DNA of 64,000 bases from IMG/VR virus record IMGVR_UViG_3300037249_000541, positions 1 to 64,000 of that record. One strand, written 5' to 3'. Made by a program: the position numbers and the translations under genes. Shown here piece after piece: positions 35,028-62,564 of the stretch (its first letter is position 1; each line of letters begins with the position of its first letter). A model generated the notes under the pieces. That model saw only the letters and a program-made list of their open reading frames with translations, made no database searches and was not told the origin of the DNA. This DNA comes from a virus. Its lineage: Duplodnaviria > Caudoviricetes.

Positions 35028-36527
35028 TTAGTATTCAAGTATAGCAGGAACTATTGAATAGGTTCTTGTCGGGTCTAATACGCAGATTCCGAGAGTTGCC
35101 TTCTTGTGGATAACTGCCGAATCTTCGTCGTAAGATGCGTGGGTAATGTCGGTTTCGCCAGTGAATGGGTTAGCGAATGGACCACATTGATAACCACGGA
35201 ACTCAGGACGATTCTTTACAGCACACTTGAAGATGTTTTGTTGCTCAGGTGTACCAATATCAAAGATGTCGTATCTATAAGAGAATGCTGGCCCACCATT
35301 GGGGTGCATTATCTTATTTCTTACGGTATCATCGTAAGTTGGGTCTACATTAATCTTGATTCTTACACCATTAGGAGCAAGATACTCTACAAACTGGAAG
35401 CCTGCGCTTAGAGCATTTGAATGTAGTGGCGATGTGGTGTTCTGAATACCAAATGCCTTACCGTCAACTGTGAATGCCTGCCAGCCAGATACTGTGTTAA
35501 GGATTGCCTTGTGGAACTGAGTAGCACCTCTTTCACCAGTTTGAAGGATAAATGTTCTCTCGCCAAAGCCAAGCTTAGCAGCAGATAGTTCATAAAGGAT
35601 TTCCTCGATAAGTCTTAGCGAGAATGTATTGTAGTACCTTATATTTGCAGATGACATCTGTGCGTACAGACCATCACCAGTCTTAATAGGTCTACCAGAC
35701 TTACCGATGTTAAGCCTTTGCTCGTGAGGAGTCTTGTTTGACTTACCAAATGCAAGAGCGTTGTTCTTATATTCTGCAAACTTCTGCTCTATCTCCCAGT
35801 CAACCCTTTGCATCCAAGCAGAGATTACTTTCTTGTTGCCGTTGTCGTCTACGATAGGAATTGGAACAGCAAGCTTGTCGTCGATAAGCGCACCACCAAC
35901 CTTGTGCTGGATTCTGATTGTAGAGAACTCATTCTTCATAGCAGTATGCGTAGCATGGTTGATGTCGCCAACCTTTCTTGATAGGTCGTCCTCTACGAAA
36001 GCTGCTTCGTAGCTGAATTTCTCACCAGGAAGAAGTCTGTTAGCTGGAACACCAGCTGTGTTGCCGCCTGCAAGTTCTACTCTATACTTAACATAGGTAC
36101 CTTCCTTAATTGGGTCGCCAAGAATTCTGAACTGATAAAGTTCGTTCATATTACCTACGATGTATTCACCGTCGTAGAAATACTCTTCCTCAAAGTATAG
36201 GTAGAATGGAGCTGTACCAACACCTACATTACCAGAAGTCTTGTCTACTTCTTGACCGTTCTCATCCACTGCAAACGCAAGAGGAATGTTACGCCTTGAA
36301 GAACCTATAATTTCCCAATAGAACTCATCGTCCCTGTCAAATGTCTTTGTAGGGAACTGTGATAAGAAAGATTCAAGAGTCTTCGCTCTATTGGCAGCAA
36401 AGACACGAATCATCATCTCCGAAGCCTTTTGTGGCATCTTCATAGCGAGCATCGCCATAGCTGGATGGTCTTTAACGTCCATGCCGCCCCACGTAGTAAG
36501 CTTCCATAGTTGTTGATTATTAGCCAT
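35028..36527 (-). CDS. Major capsid protein (HK97 fold, crAss-like)
   Basis: 499 aa; FLSQFPTKTF..YWEIIGSSRRNIPL..LSRKVGD..SAGFQFVEY..NKIMHPNGGPAFSYRYDI are recognisable crAss capsid motifs. Confidence 0.95.
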   Translation of the reverse strand: MANNQQLWKLTTWGGMDVKDHPAMAMLAMKMPQKASEMMIRVFAANRAKTLESFLSQFPTKTFDRDDEFYWEIIGSSRRNIPLAFAVDENGQEVDKTSGNVGVGTAPFYLYFEEEYFYDGEYIVGNMNELYQFRILGDPIKEGTYVKYRVELAGGNTAGVPANRLLPGEKFSYEAAFVEDDLSRKVGDINHATHTAMKNEFSTIRIQHKVGGALIDDKLAVPIPIVDDNGNKKVISAWMQRVDWEIEQKFAEYKNNALAFGKSNKTPHEQRLNIGKSGRPIKTGDGLYAQMSSANIRYYNTFSLRLIEEILYELSAAKLGFGERTFILQTGERGATQFHKAILNTVSGWQAFTVDGKAFGIQNTTSPLHSNALSAGFQFVEYLAPNGVRIKINVDPTYDDTVRNKIMHPNGGPAFSYRYDIFDIGTPEQQNIFKCAVKNRPEFRGYQCGPFANPFTGETDITHASYDEDSAVIHKKATLGICVLDPTRTYSIVPAILEY

Positions 36528-41792: not shown

Positions 41793-42152
41793 TTACTCAG
41801 TGGGTTCTTCTGCAGGAGTAATCTCCTTTACTACTGGACGGTCATAAGTGAAGTTAATCTTCACAATCTCTTCTACGGGAATCAAATCTTCAACTTGGTG
41901 ATAAGTCTCAGTGATTTGTGTGTCAGTAGTTACGATTGAAGGATTAGTGTCCTTTGGAGAAGGCATTGTAAGAACTCCATCAGTTACAGAGGGAATCCTA
42001 CTTCCCCAATAGCCGTTTTTGAGGTCATAGGCAATCTTTTCACCGTTCCTCAATACAATCGTCATCTTAGGATTGATGCCCTTGTAAGTTGTCTTAATTT
42101 TGTCCAATTCACTGCCATTGACAATGATGGACGTTACTTGATTTTCTGTCAT
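41793..42152 (-). CDS. Hypothetical protein in the fibre block
   Basis: 119 aa ORF. Confidence 0.7.
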   Translation of the reverse strand: MTENQVTSIIVNGSELDKIKTTYKGINPKMTIVLRNGEKIAYDLKNGYWGSRIPSVTDGVLTMPSPKDTNPSIVTTDTQITETYHQVEDLIPVEEIVKINFTYDRPVVKEITPAEEPTE

Positions 42153-44473: not shown

Positions 44474-46030
44474 TTAATGTTCTATCCAACCAATTTCAGA
44501 ATCTGTTACATAATGTGAAGTATCTTCTTCTGGTGGAACACATTGTTGCCATTCTTCTGTATCAATATCAATAGTTTCTTGAGATACTCCTTGTACATAT
44601 TCACTACTCAAATAAAGGAAATCACACACTTGTTTGTAATGTTCTCCATTATAATCAAGTGCTAACAATAGATATTGATTATTAGCCACATCATTGTAAC
44701 AATATATTTTCCTACCATCAGTGCTTTTGAATATAACTATATCTGACTCTTGGAAAAACTCTTGAACAATTGGAGTGGATATTTTCGCATAAAGTTCTGG
44801 ACCAGACCTGTCAGTATATATAATTCTACGTGGGTATTTAATGCCTTGATATGTAGAATAATATACAGTTTCTACTTTAAGAAAATGGTATGTGTTCTCA
44901 CTTCCGCCTATCCAATATAAACCGATTGCATTTTCTTTTATTTCATAATTATTTCCATCCTGATATACATTTATACAGCCACCCCCACTTGTATAACTCC
45001 AAGTTGATGCTTTAAGTATATTTCCAGAAACTTCATCTGTTTCGTTTGTTTTATAATATATACCCCTCGTAATGCCACATACCGATAGACCAGTATCGGA
45101 ATCCACCCACTGACCATTAACATTAATATAATCAGTACCAGATGGTATTACAATCTGTGTTCCTACTTTTTTATAATTGAAGCCATTAGTGTACTTAGAG
45201 TTTGTTTCTCCTATATACTGTACTATCTTGCCCTCAGATGCTTGAAAGTTATCCAAGTCATCTACTTGTTCAAGATATTTACCTGTATATACAGTACCAT
45301 CATTCCTTAAAAGACCCTCAATATCACTTTTACGTACAAGGTCAGTAGGCTTGTTTAATATTTGTGATTTACCTGATTCAGAGTTCCAATCTGCATTTAC
45401 TTGTGCTTCGGGGATTGTAGGCTTATTTTGTATAAACGCTTTGGAAGATTCATTACTCTCATTCCAATCAGCCTGTACCTGAGCATCAGGTATCTCAGGC
45501 TTATTCAAGATATAAGCCTTAGAAGTTTCATCTGTTTCATTCCAATTTGATTGCACCTGTTGGATTGGATTATGTTCAATATAATCTTCTACTGCTTCTA
45601 TTACATTATCAGATATATTTTGTATATTATTTTCGTAATCACTCTTTAAAAGGAAAGGGTAGGATTTTAAATTACGGCGGTCAATAATGGCTGCACTATC
45701 TTCCAGTAGAAGAACAGGTTCTGGGTTTGGATATAACTCTTCTATACAAAGGATGTGTATATACTCTCTAAAGCCATTAAACTTGCTGTTTTGGATAAAT
45801 ACATATTGTGCATTACACAAATCTTTTGCTTGAACAACAGCTACACCTGAGAACTTAGTAACACCTGAAACTTCGTATTTAATAGCCCACAAGCGTAGTG
45901 GATGATGACATTCACATTTATCATTATCACAGCAATGAACTGGTGTAGATGGGTTGTGAACATAATCAGCATTTTGAGGAATCTCATTAGGCTTGTAATT
46001 ACTATCTATATATGTATTTTCATTAGGCAT
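44474..46030 (-). CDS. Tail fibre (proximal) protein
   Basis: Three QV..[DN]WN......[YFQ]I.NKP repeats. Confidence 0.65.
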   Translation of the reverse strand: MPNENTYIDSNYKPNEIPQNADYVHNPSTPVHCCDNDKCECHHPLRLWAIKYEVSGVTKFSGVAVVQAKDLCNAQYVFIQNSKFNGFREYIHILCIEELYPNPEPVLLLEDSAAIIDRRNLKSYPFLLKSDYENNIQNISDNVIEAVEDYIEHNPIQQVQSNWNETDETSKAYILNKPEIPDAQVQADWNESNESSKAFIQNKPTIPEAQVNADWNSESGKSQILNKPTDLVRKSDIEGLLRNDGTVYTGKYLEQVDDLDNFQASEGKIVQYIGETNSKYTNGFNYKKVGTQIVIPSGTDYINVNGQWVDSDTGLSVCGITRGIYYKTNETDEVSGNILKASTWSYTSGGGCINVYQDGNNYEIKENAIGLYWIGGSENTYHFLKVETVYYSTYQGIKYPRRIIYTDRSGPELYAKISTPIVQEFFQESDIVIFKSTDGRKIYCYNDVANNQYLLLALDYNGEHYKQVCDFLYLSSEYVQGVSQETIDIDTEEWQQCVPPEEDTSHYVTDSEIGWIEH

Positions 46031-49222: not shown

Positions 49223-49250
49223 ACAAGAGTTGTAGTGTTGCAACTCTTGT
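49223..49250 (-). terminator. Hairpin/terminator between terminase and portal, adjacent to a TATTTTTG -7 element
   Basis: ACAAGAGTTG / CAACTCTTGT 10-bp stem followed by a T run on the minus strand. Confidence 0.65.
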
Positions 49251-49269: not shown

Positions 49270-51540
49270 CTAATAACTTTCAACTTCATTATCGTAAGGA
49301 TTATTGTAATTTTCACTGAAAAAAGGGTCATTGCCTATATAGTCGTCAGGTATATAATTCTTACCAATATCAAGTTGTCCTTGATATAAAACGACCTTCT
49401 CCTCCCTGTAAAGCATAACAAGACCTAATGCTCTAATCCTATCATAGTTGCCTTGCAATGGAGTATATTGTATGCACTCTCTTAACAAAGCTCTATTCTT
49501 TATATTGAATAGATTAGGAACTTGAACTTCTATTTCTTGTCCATTGCTATCTCTTGACATCTTAACAATTGGTTTTAGCATCCATTGTTGAATCAATTTA
49601 TTAGCATAATTGTTTATCGGTAATGTAGCCCTGACACCTTTGGACGTATTACCGTAGCCAACTGATTTGATTAGTTGTTTGTCAACGAGATATTCAGGAG
49701 TGTCAGCAAGTAAATGCAGACAGTTCTTCTGTGAGAAATAAGCAAAGCAACCCTTAATGTTTTGTTCATATAGACATTTGGCATTATAGAAAAGACATAA
49801 CCTTCTTAATACTTCAAAGTTGTCGTCAGCCATTTTCTTCCTGCCAGTATATTCAGCTACTATTCTATCAGTCCATAAATCAAGTACAAATGTTGAAGAA
49901 AGAGAACCTTGTTTATCTTCATCATTATCAACTGGGTCGTGTCCAATAATATATCTGTCTGGTGGAATTTTTCCGTTAACTCCAGTAGCTGGCATCTCGA
50001 ATATTTCTAATGCACCTTCAACAATATTATTGTCATTAACTTTAAATTCCCTTATCGGAGTATCAGTTGTAGGTTTAAATTCAACTTCTCCATTTGGTTT
50101 TACAACAAGTTCTCCTACGTATGTATCATTGTAAAACGATGGATTATTATCTATTTCAAGTAACCTTTCCTGCAATTCTGTTATAGGAAATAGATTGTTA
50201 GCTGTTTGTAATACAGCTTCTTTTGGTGTTATAGGTAATTCTGCCATACGTTTTGTAATCATTCGTATGTCAGTAGAGTTATATTTAACTATGTACCTAT
50301 CTTTAAGTATCTCAAGAAGAGCTTTTATTACGTCGCTATTTCCATTCTCGTCATAACATTCAGCCATATTAAGATATGAAGGAAAGAAATATGTAAAATC
50401 CTTTCTGCCTTGACCTTCCAAATCGTACACATTAGGAAGTTCTTGCATATTGTAGCCTTTTGGATTATACATTATTTCTTGCATAGACGAAAAGTCAGAT
50501 TCATTATCACCAGCGGTACCATACATATATACTTGACCAAACACATTAGTACCATCTTCCACTGATGGCCTAAGCACTGCATATAGTTGTAATAGCCTTG
50601 GAAATGAACCAGCCTCCTCAATTACATACAATTGACCACGAGAACCACGAAGTTTGGATTCATCATCTTTAGAAGTAATGCCTGTAACAGAATTAAGGGT
50701 CCCTTTCTTTGTATTGTTTTCAGCATCAATATATCCCATTGTCCATTGCATATCGTGCAATGAATTTACAAGACGCTTAGCAGGAAATTGCGTGTTATTT
50801 GCAAGAAAGTCTATATAATAAACAAACATATCAAGGACCTGATTGGCACCTTGAATATATTTTCTTTCCGATGCAGTAACAACACATTGAACTTTTTTAT
50901 TTACTTCCTTACTTTCGCCAAGTATAAACCTCTTTGCAATACGTGCTGCCGAGGTATAACTCTTGCCCTTACCTCTGGCTGCCAACATACAGGCATGATG
51001 ACCATTCTCTCTTGCTTGTTCAAGATAATGAAATAAATAATAGTGTCCATCCCATATATTTGGAAAGTCTATAACTCTTTGAGAGCTTTTACTCTTCTTA
51101 CCTTTTGATTTCTTTGATACTTGTATAGGGCAATAGTTTAAAAAGAAATAATAATCACCTGTTATCCATTCTCCATCAGATTTTCTCATATAACCTTCAT
51201 AGCATCTTCTGATTTCTTCTCTTATCCATTTGCCATATTCAGAATTAGGATTACTATTGGGAGCAAGATTTGTATAACATCCATATTTCTTATAATGTAA
51301 TGCTGCTGGCCTGAAATAATCCATGTCTTCAAGTATATGAGGCTTCGTAACATCAACAATAATTCTTCCTTTGTCATCTGTTGGAAGTTCACAAGCTCTT
51401 GGTCTATCTTTTGCTATTAGAGATTTTACAAATGGTATTCCGTTGATTATTTGTAAGAACTGTTCTTGTATTTCTTGTGGATACTTTTCAAGAATCTCGT
51501 CTGTTATTTTACTTTGGTATTTATTAAAATCAAAGTCCAT
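49270..51540 (-). CDS. terL: Terminase large subunit
   Basis: Walker A ARGKGKS, Walker B YVIEEAG, motif III YGTAG, nuclease YIIGHDP. Confidence 0.93.
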   Translation of the reverse strand: MDFDFNKYQSKITDEILEKYPQEIQEQFLQIINGIPFVKSLIAKDRPRACELPTDDKGRIIVDVTKPHILEDMDYFRPAALHYKKYGCYTNLAPNSNPNSEYGKWIREEIRRCYEGYMRKSDGEWITGDYYFFLNYCPIQVSKKSKGKKSKSSQRVIDFPNIWDGHYYLFHYLEQARENGHHACMLAARGKGKSYTSAARIAKRFILGESKEVNKKVQCVVTASERKYIQGANQVLDMFVYYIDFLANNTQFPAKRLVNSLHDMQWTMGYIDAENNTKKGTLNSVTGITSKDDESKLRGSRGQLYVIEEAGSFPRLLQLYAVLRPSVEDGTNVFGQVYMYGTAGDNESDFSSMQEIMYNPKGYNMQELPNVYDLEGQGRKDFTYFFPSYLNMAECYDENGNSDVIKALLEILKDRYIVKYNSTDIRMITKRMAELPITPKEAVLQTANNLFPITELQERLLEIDNNPSFYNDTYVGELVVKPNGEVEFKPTTDTPIREFKVNDNNIVEGALEIFEMPATGVNGKIPPDRYIIGHDPVDNDEDKQGSLSSTFVLDLWTDRIVAEYTGRKKMADDNFEVLRRLCLFYNAKCLYEQNIKGCFAYFSQKNCLHLLADTPEYLVDKQLIKSVGYGNTSKGVRATLPINNYANKLIQQWMLKPIVKMSRDSNGQEIEVQVPNLFNIKNRALLRECIQYTPLQGNYDRIRALGLVMLYREEKVVLYQGQLDIGKNYIPDDYIGNDPFFSENYNNPYDNEVESY

Positions 51541-52000
51541 GACATTTATTTATATTTGTATTTAATTCTTGCTTTAATAAATTCTGACTTCTTGTAAGGT
51601 CCTCAATAGTTTTATTTCTTTCAAGGTGCATCTTTTCTATTATTGACAATAGATTGTTTTCAAATGCTATTATATCTTTAGGTTTCAATAGAACCATCAA
51701 ATCTTCCTTTGACATTGGCTCGTTATTGTAATACCATACTATTGAATCGTTTTCTTTTTTAAGAGTGATGATATTATAGTCTATATGACTTTCATTTCTT
51801 TTCAAGGGAATTTCCAATTCGTCTATATGAGTATTACGTAATAGTGCTTCTTCAAGGTAATATGTAAGACCTAATATTTTTCCACTAAATTTAGTTATGC
51901 CCCAAAAATATTCTGTTAGAGAATCAATATGATTGTCTTTCTTTTCAAGAAACCATAATACTTGTTCCCATACGTTCTCATTTTTTATAACTTGTGCCAT
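51530..52000 (-). CDS. Hypothetical protein
   Basis: 156 aa ORF coupled to both neighbours. Confidence 0.7.
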   Translation of the reverse strand: MAQVIKNENVWEQVLWFLEKKDNHIDSLTEYFWGITKFSGKILGLTYYLEEALLRNTHIDELEIPLKRNESHIDYNIITLKKENDSIVWYYNNEPMSKEDLMVLLKPKDIIAFENNLLSIIEKMHLERNKTIEDLTRSQNLLKQELNTNINKCHGL

Positions 52001-52905
52001 TACTTATTCATTAAATTGTTAATTTTTTCTGCTATTATCTTAATATCTCCGTGAGGTTTGCCAGTAGTGCCTTTCAGCCTTAAATCAATAATATGATTCC
52101 ATTCATCAGTGGTTGCTGTATAGATAGCTTTTGTATGAGTATCTAATGGAAGTATACCACGGACTTCATCAGTACTAAGCCCCATCCCAAACTCATTATC
52201 AGAACAATTCTTTAAATCGTTTGGCATATCTCTAAGTGATGTCATGTAAAATCTTTCTACTATTTCCATGATACCTTCCCACCATTTTTTATAAGCATAA
52301 CTTTTCGTATCATACCAATAAGGTTTGTTGAAAGCGACTGCATTTCCAAACTTATCCTTAGAGAAGTTGCAATAACGAGTTGATTGTTCACAGATATAGA
52401 AGTTATCGTGATGTCTATTCATTTCACGAGTACAACCAATGGAAGTATCTACAATAAATGATTTGAAAATACTATTTGTGCTGCTTATCTCTCTTAAATA
52501 GTCTAACATTAAATCAATTAGTTCTGTAATAGAATTAATTATCTTTTGTTCTTCTTTAATTTGAATGATACTTTCTACAAGTACCCTACCGTTAATATAT
52601 ACTGATGATTCAGTTTCTACTCTATATTTTGAGTTACCACATCGTGCTATTACAATTTCTTGTATTCTATTTGAATCACCTTTTCCAGTATATATTTTAT
52701 ATAGTTTTTCAAAATCAAAACTTATTATTGCGTGTTCAAATGGACTAAAATGCTTTGACTTAATAAGACTTTCAACAAGTTTCTTATCATCAGTTGTTTT
52801 GTCGCTTGCATAACAGATTCTTGCAGCACGTGCTACTGCTTTATAGAAGTTATCTACTCCTTCAAAGTCTGTTATTTCCTGTACATTTGGTTCAATTATC
52901 TTCAT
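52000..52905 (-). CDS. thyX: FAD-dependent thymidylate synthase
   Basis: AARICYAS, HFSPFEH, REMNRHH...EQSTRYC, RGILP, LRL...PH. Confidence 0.92.
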   Translation of the reverse strand: MKIIEPNVQEITDFEGVDNFYKAVARAARICYASDKTTDDKKLVESLIKSKHFSPFEHAIISFDFEKLYKIYTGKGDSNRIQEIVIARCGNSKYRVETESSVYINGRVLVESIIQIKEEQKIINSITELIDLMLDYLREISSTNSIFKSFIVDTSIGCTREMNRHHDNFYICEQSTRYCNFSKDKFGNAVAFNKPYWYDTKSYAYKKWWEGIMEIVERFYMTSLRDMPNDLKNCSDNEFGMGLSTDEVRGILPLDTHTKAIYTATTDEWNHIIDLRLKGTTGKPHGDIKIIAEKINNLMNK

Positions 52906-53334: not shown

Positions 53335-53667
53335 TTATATAAATAGTTTTTTACAAAATTCTTCTGTTGTTGGGTTACACCCACACTCTGCAATTTCTTC
53401 AATAAGCCATTGCCAATCTTCCAGTTTAACTGCATCAAACGTAGTAGATATATACCATACACAAACTTTATCTCCATACTTATCTGTTTCACAAAACTCC
53501 TTACCTTCCACTATGTGAGTTTTACTTTCATCAAACCATTGTAAATCTTCTGAATATTCAGTAGTAATAGGAATTTTTAGATATACTTTTAAATTAGACA
53601 ATAACTCAAAAAAGTGTTTATTTGATATTTCTTTTTCTTCTGTAGTCATTTCACAAATCTGTTTCAA
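53335..53667 (-). CDS. Hypothetical acidic protein
   Basis: 110 aa ORF. Confidence 0.7.
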   Translation of the reverse strand: MKQICEMTTEEKEISNKHFFELLSNLKVYLKIPITTEYSEDLQWFDESKTHIVEGKEFCETDKYGDKVCVWYISTTFDAVKLEDWQWLIEEIAECGCNPTTEEFCKKLFI

Positions 53668-54259
53668 CTATACATTTTTCTATTTTAAAGCCTGAACCTG
53701 GTGTAAGGTCGTAGTAAAATACTGGATAGTCATTTTTTGAAGTACGTTCTACTTTGTACGTATAACGACCATCTTTTAAAAGTGGATTACTCATAACTCT
53801 AAAAAGACAACTACTACCATATCCAGCAGATATGTATTCACCTTCATAGAAATATGGACTGTCAAATGTTAAATAGAATTCATTATCATCTTTTGTTAGT
53901 TTTGATTTTTCTGTAATTTCATTACCATATTTATCTGTTGCTTTTATTAAACCATATTCTACAAAATCATCAGCCTGTGGTTTTCTTACGAACATACCAA
54001 CATTTACTATCTTTCCAGTGATGGTAGAAATATCAAACAAGATTCTCGGAAATGATGAATTGTTATTTACAAAATTAGCGTAATTTTCCAGTTGATTAAT
54101 CAAACATTTAGTTATAGGATTATTGCACCATTTTGTAAATTCATCTTTTGATTTAGAATTATTGAATTCAATTTTATCATTAGACCTATATACATTGACA
54201 TCTATTTTCGATGTACTACCTTTACTTGCTGTTATCTCAGCTTCTTTAATCTCTTCCAT
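53651..54259 (-). CDS. Protein whose C-terminal ~100 aa is a paralogue of an internal major-capsid domain
   Basis: FYLTFDSPYFYEGEYI versus capsid FYLYFEEEYFYDGEYI; colinear through LTPGSGF/LLPGEKF and VETDL/VEDDL. Confidence 0.85.
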   Translation of the reverse strand: MEEIKEAEITASKGSTSKIDVNVYRSNDKIEFNNSKSKDEFTKWCNNPITKCLINQLENYANFVNNNSSFPRILFDISTITGKIVNVGMFVRKPQADDFVEYGLIKATDKYGNEITEKSKLTKDDNEFYLTFDSPYFYEGEYISAGYGSSCLFRVMSNPLLKDGRYTYKVERTSKNDYPVFYYDLTPGSGFKIEKCIVETDL

Positions 54260-54812: not shown

Positions 54813-54843
54813 ATTAAAGTCGATAATTTATATTACCTAAAAA

Positions 54844-54877
54844 TAAAAACCCCTCTAATTGCCCGAAAAAGAGGGGG
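54844..54877 (-). terminator. Intrinsic terminator
   Basis: CCCCTC / GAGGGG stem followed by TTTTTATTTT on the minus strand. Confidence 0.55.
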
Positions 54878-54900: not shown

Positions 54901-55260
54901 CTAAACTTCATATTCGTTGACTATGTAATCAATTGCATTATCTCGCAAAAATAGATACTGTTCGTTGTTTAATCTTATTGTTGGAACATCATATTCTACG
55001 ATAGGATTCATTGACTGCATACTTTCTTTTATGGAACCTTCCTCGTATTTTGTCTTGCCATATTGAGTGAGGTTTATTTTTACAATATCACCAACTTTAA
55101 TATCCTTTACAAAAGAACCTACTGCTATAACTCTTTGCAATGGATGTAGACCGCTATGGTCTTCACCGAGTGTTATAATTTTACCAGATGTTCCTCTGTC
55201 TGCTGTTGTTATTACGTAGTTGAATCTTGGTGTGATTGTTTTGATATTTTTAATTTCCAT
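54901..55260 (-). CDS. GroES/Cpn10-like co-chaperonin
   Basis: ITPRFNYVI..RVIAVGSFVKDIKVGDIV..YLFLRDNAIDYIV. Confidence 0.75.
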   Translation of the reverse strand: MEIKNIKTITPRFNYVITTADRGTSGKIITLGEDHSGLHPLQRVIAVGSFVKDIKVGDIVKINLTQYGKTKYEEGSIKESMQSMNPIVEYDVPTIRLNNEQYLFLRDNAIDYIVNEYEV

Positions 55261-55490: not shown

Positions 55491-55884
55491 TTTTCAATAC
55501 GTACAATAATAAAATGTTGCCGTCTTTATTGAAGTTTGGTATGCACACTGGATTTATTTTATTATCTTTATAGAAGTTTTTACTTCTTAGCCCCTTTAAG
55601 ATAATTTGAAAATAAGTTGGCGTCATACCAAGTTCTTGTCTAATCTTCCTCTTACTTTCAGCCGAGAATGTAACTGAGTTTAATACATCGTCATTAATTA
55701 TATTAGCTTTGTTCTGATGATAGTATTTCAAAAATAATGCAGCTACTTCTATTTCCTTGTCTGTAAGTTTGTGAAGATTATAAGTTAAGGTAAGCCACTT
55801 TACAAATATGTTATCATTGTTACATCTTATTTTAGCCATATTTGTTGGCATAAAAGCTGGCTTACCTTCACTTTGATTACTCAT
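55456..55884 (-). CDS. Putative helix-turn-helix protein
   Basis: LTDKEIEVAA..KIRQELGMTPTYFQIILKGLRSK. Confidence 0.5.
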   Translation of the reverse strand: MSNQSEGKPAFMPTNMAKIRCNNDNIFVKWLTLTYNLHKLTDKEIEVAALFLKYYHQNKANIINDDVLNSVTFSAESKRKIRQELGMTPTYFQIILKGLRSKNFYKDNKINPVCIPNFNKDGNILLLYVLKNESVPNNSNKV

Positions 55885-56191
55885 TGGGTTCCTTGGTGTC
55901 CTCAGAGGACTTCTGTTGGGGCGTTGTCATTTCACGTACTTTCTTCTGAATTTCATCCTTGACAAACTCCCTGAAATCGCTATCGAACTCCTCAATATTC
56001 CTACAATTCATAATGTTTAACATAAGATTAAGGACATCGAAAACGTATCCATAATTTGCCATCTGGAGCTTTGCTCTTAGCTCGTCGTTTTGCATACTTA
56101 GTTGCTGTGCAAGTCTTCTTAGGTCATTGACGTTAAGCTCTTGCTTTGGTGCCTCAGTCTGAGGATTCATTTTAATTGTATCTCCTTCCAT
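55877..56191 (-). CDS. Hypothetical coiled-coil protein
   Basis: 104 aa ORF. Confidence 0.7.
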   Translation of the reverse strand: MEGDTIKMNPQTEAPKQELNVNDLRRLAQQLSMQNDELRAKLQMANYGYVFDVLNLMLNIMNCRNIEEFDSDFREFVKDEIQKKVREMTTPQQKSSEDTKEPNE

Positions 56192-59336: not shown

Positions 59337-59657
59337 TTATAGCTTTATCCCTTCCTCTTTAATTCTTTTGTAAAGTATTGATTTGTAGTCTCTCATTATT
59401 TGACGTTGCTTATAAAGATTTCCAAACTTTGATTTACCTACATATTCAAGTTCTTTTTTATTTACTGCTTCTATAAAAGCTTCAAGCGAAGATAATTTTG
59501 ATGACAGTTCGTTATATTCTCTTACAAGTCTGTCTTGCCAAGTAGTAGCAGGTGAAGATGGAATTGGTTTTACTTTTTTAATTAAATCGTCCAATATAGT
59601 TTCTAAGTTTGAAACTCTTTTATGTAACGCTTCAATACACATTAATTCTGTAAGCAT
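59337..59657 (-). CDS. crAss001_48-related helical protein
   Basis: WQDRLVREYNEL..L..L..FI..LYKQRQIMRDYKSIL.RI pattern. Confidence 0.6.
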   Translation of the reverse strand: MLTELMCIEALHKRVSNLETILDDLIKKVKPIPSSPATTWQDRLVREYNELSSKLSSLEAFIEAVNKKELEYVGKSKFGNLYKQRQIMRDYKSILYKRIKEEGIKL

Positions 59658-62228: not shown

Positions 62229-62564
62229 TTAGTGCTTTCTCTGCATCTTCTTTTGATTTGTACATTCCATCTGGCAATCCGTTACCCCTATTATGTGGAA
62301 GGTGTATTGCGTGTAGTAATACTTGATACCAACGCTATCAGGAATTAGCTGATACAACATACCAGAATCTTGTGTTGTTGGATAATACATTTTTCTTATT
62401 TGCTGCATCTCCCAATTGTTGTTTAGAAGATAGTCTATTGTCATCTGTTCGATGGCAATAGTGTCCTTTACTTCCAACTTAGGTTTCTGCATTTTCTTCG
62501 GTTCATTTGTGCAACTTGCTACGAGTAGCAACATTGCTAATAGATTGGTTATCTTTTTCATCAT
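62229..62564 (-). CDS. Lipoprotein
   Basis: Signal peptide MMKKITNLLAMLLLVAS-C (lipobox). Confidence 0.75.
   Translation of the reverse strand: MMKKITNLLAMLLLVASCTNEPKKMQKPKLEVKDTIAIEQMTIDYLLNNNWEMQQIRKMYYPTTQDSGMLYQLIPDSVGIKYYYTQYTFHIIGVTDCQMECTNQKKMQRKH

Follow-up and report, generated by a model that had tools for sequence, protein, structure and literature searches.

The major capsid protein (MCP) of the crassvirus PhiCrAss001, gp32, carries a beta-barrel of residues 79-180, the I-domain, inserted in the E-loop of its HK97 fold, and this domain joins the auxiliary protein gp36 in three-fold assemblies, which make up much of the exposed capsid surface (PMC10172136). The stability of capsids comes either from I-domains or from separate decoration proteins (PMC7602432). 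MCPs are also triggers of bacterial immunity, and Thoeris, CapRel and CBASS are all set off by them (PMC13728456). In staphylococcal Thoeris, ThsB1 binds monomeric MCP via the E-loop, and the P-loop is needed to recruit ThsB2 (PMC12578639). On the phage side, experiments have shown that the Sequestin family acts as a sponge for the Thoeris signal 3'cADPR (bioRxiv 10.1101/2025.07.12.664507), and DSAD1 counteracts DSR2, a sensor of phage tail tube protein (PMC11087589). Our literature search turned up no account, for crassviruses or for any other phages, of an I-domain that is encoded as a gene of its own.

We analysed a stretch of 64,000 nucleotides of a Caudoviricetes genome, that of a gut crAss-like phage (IMG/VR record IMGVR_UViG_3300037249_000541, positions 1 to 64,000; hereafter the window), in which every gene lies on the minus strand. 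The original prediction placed in it an open reading frame encoding a second, free-standing copy of an internal MCP domain, and this frame exists as claimed. We conclude that the gene, referred to here as FS, is almost certainly an optional, lineage-specific accessory gene, which joins a duplicated E-loop insertion domain of an MCP of its lineage to an orphan N-terminal domain of about 100 aa, and which passed through a burst of divergence and then came under purifying selection. The features on which the analysis rests are the following.

53651..54259, minus strand: FS, the free-standing gene, 202 aa plus stop, ATG start
53654..53953, minus strand: FS barrel, residues 103-202, the MCP-derived I-domain beta-barrel
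53954..54259, minus strand: FS N-terminal half, residues 1-102, orphan, with an invariant MEEI.E start
35028..36527, minus strand: MCP, 499 aa (Pfam Crass_capsid E 2e-168; PhiCrAss001 gp32, 7qof_A, E 1.4e-184)
35982..36284, minus strand: I-domain of the phage's own MCP, residues 82-182, the source-type domain (domain definition from PMC10172136)
54264..54812, minus strand: gp16-like gene, 182 aa, 38% identity to PhiCrAss001 gp16, directly upstream of FS
54901..55260, minus strand: GroES-like gene, 119 aa, homologue of PhiCrAss001 gp15
49270..51540, minus strand: large terminase (TerL), 756 aa, 54% identity to PhiCrAss001 gp19, 2.1 kb downstream of FS and co-oriented
54839..54876, minus strand: terminator-like hairpin between the GroES-like and gp16-like genes (7-bp G+C-rich stem, 13-nt loop, T-run; pattern only)
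49223..49250, minus strand: terminator-like hairpin just past the large terminase

FS residues 104-202 aligned colinearly with residues 83-182 of the phage's own MCP (35982..36287), with 37% identity over 101 columns and three small gaps (54.3 bits, E 3e-13), and the top score among 500 composition-preserving shuffles of the MCP was 26.2 bits. All the motif pairs quoted in the original prediction were found, including the FYL..GEYI block with 11 of 16 residues identical, and a 23-nt in-register DNA match between the two genes persists at the YFY.GEYI motif. FS residues 105-199 matched Pfam Crass_capsid (PF23898; E 1.6e-4, 20.6 bits) over model positions 87-182 only; the score lies below the gathering threshold of 27 bits, so that FS does not rank as a full-length MCP, and this is to be expected of one domain set against a model of about 496 positions. 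When a profile of the FS family was compared with all PDB sequences, the sole match was PhiCrAss001 gp32 residues 84-181 (E 5.8e-5), and profile-profile comparison of 10 FS-family members with 22 MCPs gave a probability of 98% (E 1.5e-13). The predicted fold of FS matched the crAss capsid structure, a check that had been named beforehand, with the structural match in the model beginning at about residue 96-97, and the Atlas shape search with FS returned crass MCP clusters only. FS thus carries an E-loop insertion (I) domain beta-barrel. The homologous stretch is about coextensive with the gp32 I-domain and FS ends 2-3 residues beyond it; the domain boundary suspected earlier is therefore real, and the protein stops there, lacking the N-arm, the P-domain and the A-domain of the HK97 core. 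In the complete genome of 106,381 bp, which has terminal repeats, there are exactly two copies of the I-domain, the MCP's own and FS.

Homologues of FS were recovered from relatives of the phage. The family comprises ten 90%-identity clusters, which in an exhaustive search of 1.8 billion representative proteins reduce to three 50%-identity representatives; the proteins are 193-202 aa long at 44-87% identity, the frame is intact in all lineages, and the family alignment has 59 invariant columns, the fold core among them. Pattern scans of IMG/VR and of JGI metagenomes found no further FS genes, and INPHARED/GenBank phages searched with the FS family gave MCP matches only. One further match, P0012, a 2216-aa HYR/Ig-repeat protein (E 3.4e-4), was rejected as spurious, the likeness being only an ATDxxGN strand motif which is repeated seven times in it.

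In a tree of I-domains rooted with distant crassvirus MCPs as outgroup, all FS copies were monophyletic (100/100), and their stem measured 1.9-2.3 substitutions per site. This clade fell within the crown formed by the near MCP I-domains (97/97), with PhiCrAss001 and more distant MCPs outside. The nested position is conservative, because long-branch attraction would draw the clade outwards. Since FS nests within the MCP crown, the transfer ran from the MCP to the free-standing gene, which bears out the proposal of an exapted capsid domain. Grouping of FS with its cognate capsid, looked for as a check of that proposal, was not observed. FS is about 30% identical to every MCP I-domain, compared with an average of about 62% between MCP clades, and at the ten columns by which the MCP clade of this phage differs from the remaining crown MCPs FS shares the own-clade state twice and the other state never. 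That FS makes up its own clade on a long stem points to one old event without ongoing gene conversion, and nothing in the data suggests that exchange with the cognate capsid gene goes on. Judged from sequence, FS is the product of a single event in this crassvirus lineage, followed by sharp divergence.

What the barrel has kept and lost was read from 45 I-domain columns that are conserved in at least 90% of MCPs. FS retains the same residue in 17 of the 45, almost all of them aromatic, aliphatic or glycine positions of the fold core. Another residue has become fixed in nine (e.g. P82->G, E142->K and E169->S) and 19 are variable, so that 28 of the 45 conserved MCP positions are not kept in total. 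The lost MCP-specific constraints were probably lattice contacts, and these columns describe the barrel as one whose fold is retained, from which most MCP-specific constraints have been released and which then gained constraints of its own. Neither the net charge nor the pI of the barrel pointed to a function.

Such a pattern raises the possibility that the barrel was re-purposed: having lost its capsid contacts, it would now, together with the orphan N-terminal domain, bind some unrelated target, be it nucleic acid, a metabolic or regulatory protein of the host, or the product of the neighbouring gp16-like gene, and its capsid ancestry would say nothing about its mechanism. The very long stem, together with an identity to every MCP I-domain of only about half that seen between MCP clades, agrees with this, as do the nine MCP-invariant positions fixed to new residues, the charge reversal at E142 among them, the conserved and novel N-terminal half and the strict adjacency to the gp16-like gene. 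On the other hand, this reading names no mechanism and nothing positive indicates a particular target, and we consider it rather unlikely, though only slightly less likely than the reading ranked first below.

The N-terminal half of FS, described in the original prediction as unrelated to the capsid protein, is so as far as sequence comparison reaches. When it was aligned with the MCP N-arm by hhalign, locally and globally, the probability was about 1% or less, which also rules out that the whole of FS is a truncated MCP of residues 1-182 (N-arm plus I-domain). No paralogue of it was found among the ORFs of its own genome or of PhiCrAss001, and no relative outside the FS family among the 1.8 billion representative proteins; Pfam, PHROGs, NCBIfam and PADLOC held nothing similar to it, and PHROGs, NCBIfam and PADLOC gave no match to FS as a whole. 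The best score in the Atlas feature search with this half, 0.80, was at chance level. Across the FS family, residues 1-102 are conserved as strongly as the barrel. They are predicted with moderate confidence to form a strand at 23-31, helices at 35-46 and 48-67 and strands at 72-77 and 84-92; a second FS model had pLDDT of 54-78 over residues 30-70.

We also asked whether FS could be a functionless, neutral remnant of a partial duplication of the capsid gene. Its narrow and patchy distribution would suit such an origin, and so would the variant P0008, known from one 2.3-kb contig, in which about 39 residues of the barrel core are lost in frame with a lysine run at the junction; this variant may reflect either decay of the allele or an artefact of assembly. 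Neutral decay is contradicted by dN/dS of 0.12-0.16 (three unsaturated pairs), which was similar in both halves of the gene. The full-length frame kept in all lineages down to 44% identity, the invariant columns that include the fold core, and the fixed synteny and spacing likewise speak against a remnant, and this explanation is in our view highly improbable.

Into FS the gene order runs from the tRNA array and small genes through a gp13-like regulator, the GroES-like gene, the first hairpin and the gp16-like gene; past FS there follow three small or metabolic genes, ThyX included, then a 156-aa gene, the large terminase, the second hairpin and the portal gene. The FS ATG lies 4 nt past the stop of the gp16-like gene and the ATG of the next gene lies 1 nt past the FS stop. 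The gp16-like gene is the direct upstream neighbour of FS in every carrier locus, and the slot past FS varies among carriers, being occupied by ThyX, DUF3310, DUF1599 or genes of no known family. In one relative a Sequestin (PF21825) gene stands immediately after FS. The window has a Sequestin gene as well, at 59337..59657 on the minus strand inside the tRNA array (106 aa; PF21825, crAss001_48 / Sequestin, E 9.7e-15); the gene just downstream of FS in the window (53335..53649) was also considered as a Sequestin and showed no similarity.

The original prediction held that FS lies outside the structural operon, among non-structural genes. In so far as FS is 17.1 kb from the MCP gene, which has the same orientation, this is correct, but it is overstated, because FS is co-oriented and tightly packed with its neighbours, 2.1 kb upstream of the large terminase, and the corresponding gp13-gp19 block of PhiCrAss001, which includes terminase and chaperone, belongs to its late module (PMC8375218). 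The hairpin at 54839..54876 may mark the start of a unit gp16-like / FS / ... / TerL. Together the two hairpins flank a possible transcription unit that opens with the gp16-like gene, takes in FS and ThyX and closes with the large terminase; the first hairpin, with its 13-nt loop, was missed by a consensus scan. Promoter patterns of sigma-70 type and of Bacteroides type occurred no more often than expected by chance.

Some observations on the neighbouring genes may be recorded here. At 54901..55260 the GroES-like call is based on 30% identity to PhiCrAss001 gp15, annotated as a putative 10-kDa chaperonin, and the GroES model itself gave E 0.02. The gp16-like protein, whose gene immediately precedes the terminase block, is conserved in PhiCrAss001 as well as across many viral clusters. 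It is possibly a crassvirus small terminase, the nearest named Atlas clusters being small-terminase families, but only at a chance-level score of 0.77. ThyX (window 52000..52905, minus strand) shifts among close relatives (L001, L002, L009 and L089), where it stands either after FS or several kb upstream; in PhiCrAss001 it is on the opposite strand in the middle module, and here the whole examined genome runs in one direction. In a sibling phage the large terminase has 1093 aa (L009:11945-15226 and L010:6296-9577) and carries an intein insertion of 338 aa with a Hom_end_hint domain, which falls between residues 311 and 312 of the intein-free 756-aa terminase of the window, with flanks 91-98% identical.

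FS is absent from PhiCrAss001, where an unrelated 106-aa gene occupies the slot; this gene, gp17, was rejected as a homologue at a probability of 0.2%. In 8 complete or near-complete IMG/VR relatives the FS-family profile found only the MCP or nothing. A sister phage as close as one of the carriers (MCP 76%, gp16-like protein 59% identical) has, at the FS-syntenic slot at which absence was judged, an unrelated 72-aa ORF in place of FS, which was considered as a remnant of FS and rejected at a probability of 0.06%. The same phage has the genes for the auxiliary capsid protein (Aux), ring and muzzle, and the same fusion protein with a domain like that of the portal-vertex auxiliary (PVA) protein. 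FS is not needed for this type of capsid, since it is lacking both in a sister that has the same set of capsid parts and in every other complete relative examined. A more basal relative (MCP P0022), whose contig ends 5 kb upstream of its MCP gene, stands outside this survey.

In most comparisons FS diverges faster than its neighbour, with identities of 97% for the neighbour vs 81% for FS, 95 vs 87% and 65 vs 42%, and both dN and dS of FS are 2-4 times above those of the neighbour gene. The codon composition of FS is also that of an accessory gene, as GC3, which is a proxy for expression only, was 0.17 for FS and 0.19 for the accessory Sequestin gene vs 0.41 for the MCP, 0.37 for Aux and 0.34 for the scaffold-like gene. 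FS is thus accessory, patchy and fast-evolving, and lies in a variable region with anti-defence genes. Over the coding genes of the window GC3 splits those of abundant shell proteins (0.34-0.41; 0.40 for 41793..42152) from low-copy virion and accessory genes (0.11-0.31), and it may be a usable proxy for expression in this AT-rich phage. It was unexpectedly high, at 0.46, in two small genes, 55877..56191 and 62229..62564.

Distribution and codon composition bear directly on the idea that FS is an optional, low-copy protein associated with the capsid or its assembly. Its barrel would then dock on the surface lattice of I-domains and Aux, for example at special sites such as the portal vertex, with its missing penton I-domain, or FS would hold MCP or Aux during assembly with the N-terminal half as an anchor. 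The source domain does belong to the part of the MCP that meets the auxiliary protein in three-fold assemblies at the capsid surface (PMC10172136), FS reads in the same direction as the GroES-like and gp16-like genes and the large terminase and is closely packed among them, in a block that is late in PhiCrAss001 (PMC8375218), and a precedent exists in PhiCrAss001 gp57, a portal-vertex protein encoded beside ThyX. A free I-domain would moreover bridge built-in I-domains and separate decoration proteins, and the low GC3 would fit 5-10 copies per virion. However, FS is missing at the slot of the sister with a 76%-identical MCP, Aux and the PVA-like fusion, and from all other complete relatives examined; the MCP-specific conserved positions, which are the likely lattice contacts, are mostly lost; the codon composition is unlike that of abundant shell proteins; and there is no detectable kinship of FS with PVA. 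A predicted complex of FS with the auxiliary capsid protein scored 0.00 in a run without controls, which is evidence neither way. We regard a low-copy capsid accessory as a rather unlikely explanation, and it is very unlikely that FS is a stoichiometric component of the shell or a decaying remnant.

The reading we tentatively rank first, by a small margin and at less than even odds, is that FS is a soluble mimic of the capsid domain, directed against capsid sensing by the host. FS would be a soluble protein of low abundance which is not part of the shell, and its barrel would imitate the exposed part of the unassembled MCP. It could then bind a host factor that recognises incoming capsid protein, in competition with the real MCP, and would so inhibit capsid-triggered immunity, either as a decoy or by competition; the N-terminal half might add affinity, oligomerisation or an inhibitory contact. 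Having no P- and A-domains, FS could neither assemble into a capsid nor offer the second contact to a two-step sensor. Given how ThsB1 and ThsB2 engage the MCP in staphylococcal Thoeris, an E-loop insert on its own would naturally behave as a dominant negative. The analysis itself establishes homology and fold, origin, selection, synteny and patchy occurrence; low expression of FS, its absence from the shell and a host target are what we infer. The mimic is favoured by the optional and patchy occurrence of the gene, whose variable slot is occupied in one relative by an anti-Thoeris sponge gene, by its faster evolution than that of its neighbours and by its accessory-like codon composition. The published findings that MCPs trigger Thoeris, CapRel and CBASS (PMC13728456), in one case by way of the E-loop (PMC12578639), also speak for it. 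Against it stands the poor retention of MCP-conserved positions, as with only 17 of 45 columns kept FS would mimic the conserved MCP surface poorly, though a decoy would also need to lose the lattice contacts. Furthermore, the N-terminal half, conserved as well as the barrel, has no role in a simple decoy, and FS sits right after the gp16-like gene in a terminase-proximal block that is late and morphogenetic in PhiCrAss001 (PMC8375218). The prior for a mimic is also low, because our reading of the literature gave no description of an MCP-derived decoy.

A more specific form of the capsid-domain mimic, which we hold to be improbable as it stands, is a dominant-negative decoy that binds the first, MCP-recognising component of a two-step capsid sensor, e.g. 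a TIR protein like Thoeris ThsB1, and, having no P-domain, cannot recruit or activate the second. Capsid-triggered immunity would on this reading be blunted upstream of the signal, beside the phage's Sequestin sponge.

Compared with the I-domain of PhiCrAss001 gp32 (79-180; PDB 7QOF/7QOH/7QOI; PF23898), which is inserted in the E-loop, FS is a separate gene whose product is about 30% identical to any MCP I-domain, has lost most MCP-specific positions and has an extra orphan N-terminal half. PhiCrAss001 gp57, the portal-vertex auxiliary (PF25709), is small, encoded away from the structural block near ThyX, low-copy and capsid-related, and FS resembles it as a small crassvirus protein encoded outside the structural block near ThyX. 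FS was considered as a homologue of gp57 and rejected, there being no Pfam hit at E <= 0.01 and an hhalign probability of 11% over 35 columns. In this phage the PVA-like domain is found instead at the N-terminus of the protein encoded by 44474..46030 (minus strand, 518 aa), of which residues 39-110 resemble gp57 (PF25709 E 1.2e-3, below cut-off; BLASTP 28% over 72 aa, E 1e-7). Its Cys39 aligns with the gp57 disulfide Cys25, and the domain is fused to a variable extension of about 400 aa. In relatives with and without FS the PVA-like domain heads fibre-like proteins, and this domain arrangement suggests that fibres may be anchored on the capsid at the portal vertex via the PVA-like domain.

In phage T4 the vertex protein gp24 is a paralogue of the MCP gp23, a whole-length HK97-fold copy which builds the pentons. 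FS is like gp24 in being a duplicate of a capsid protein kept as a separate gene, but gp24 is whole-length and FS copies the insertion domain only and cannot form a capsomer. With regard to P22-like coat I-domains and decoration (cement) proteins, the codon composition and dispensability of FS argue against a stoichiometric decoration protein. To our knowledge DSAD1, the counterpart of the sensor DSR2, is not derived from its trigger protein. The likeness of FS to DSAD1 would lie in the countering of a virion-protein sensor, which is the mechanism proposed for FS.

Capsid proteins trigger several bacterial immune systems, and a phage counter-measure derived from the capsid is so far undescribed. 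FS is a clean and datable case in which an exposed insertion domain alone was copied, freed from the constraints of the lattice and selected as an optional gene. If FS is a decoy, it would represent a new class of anti-defence protein and give a handle on the sensing of crassviruses in Bacteroidota; if it is instead a capsid accessory, it would show the interconversion of built-in I-domains and separate decoration proteins.
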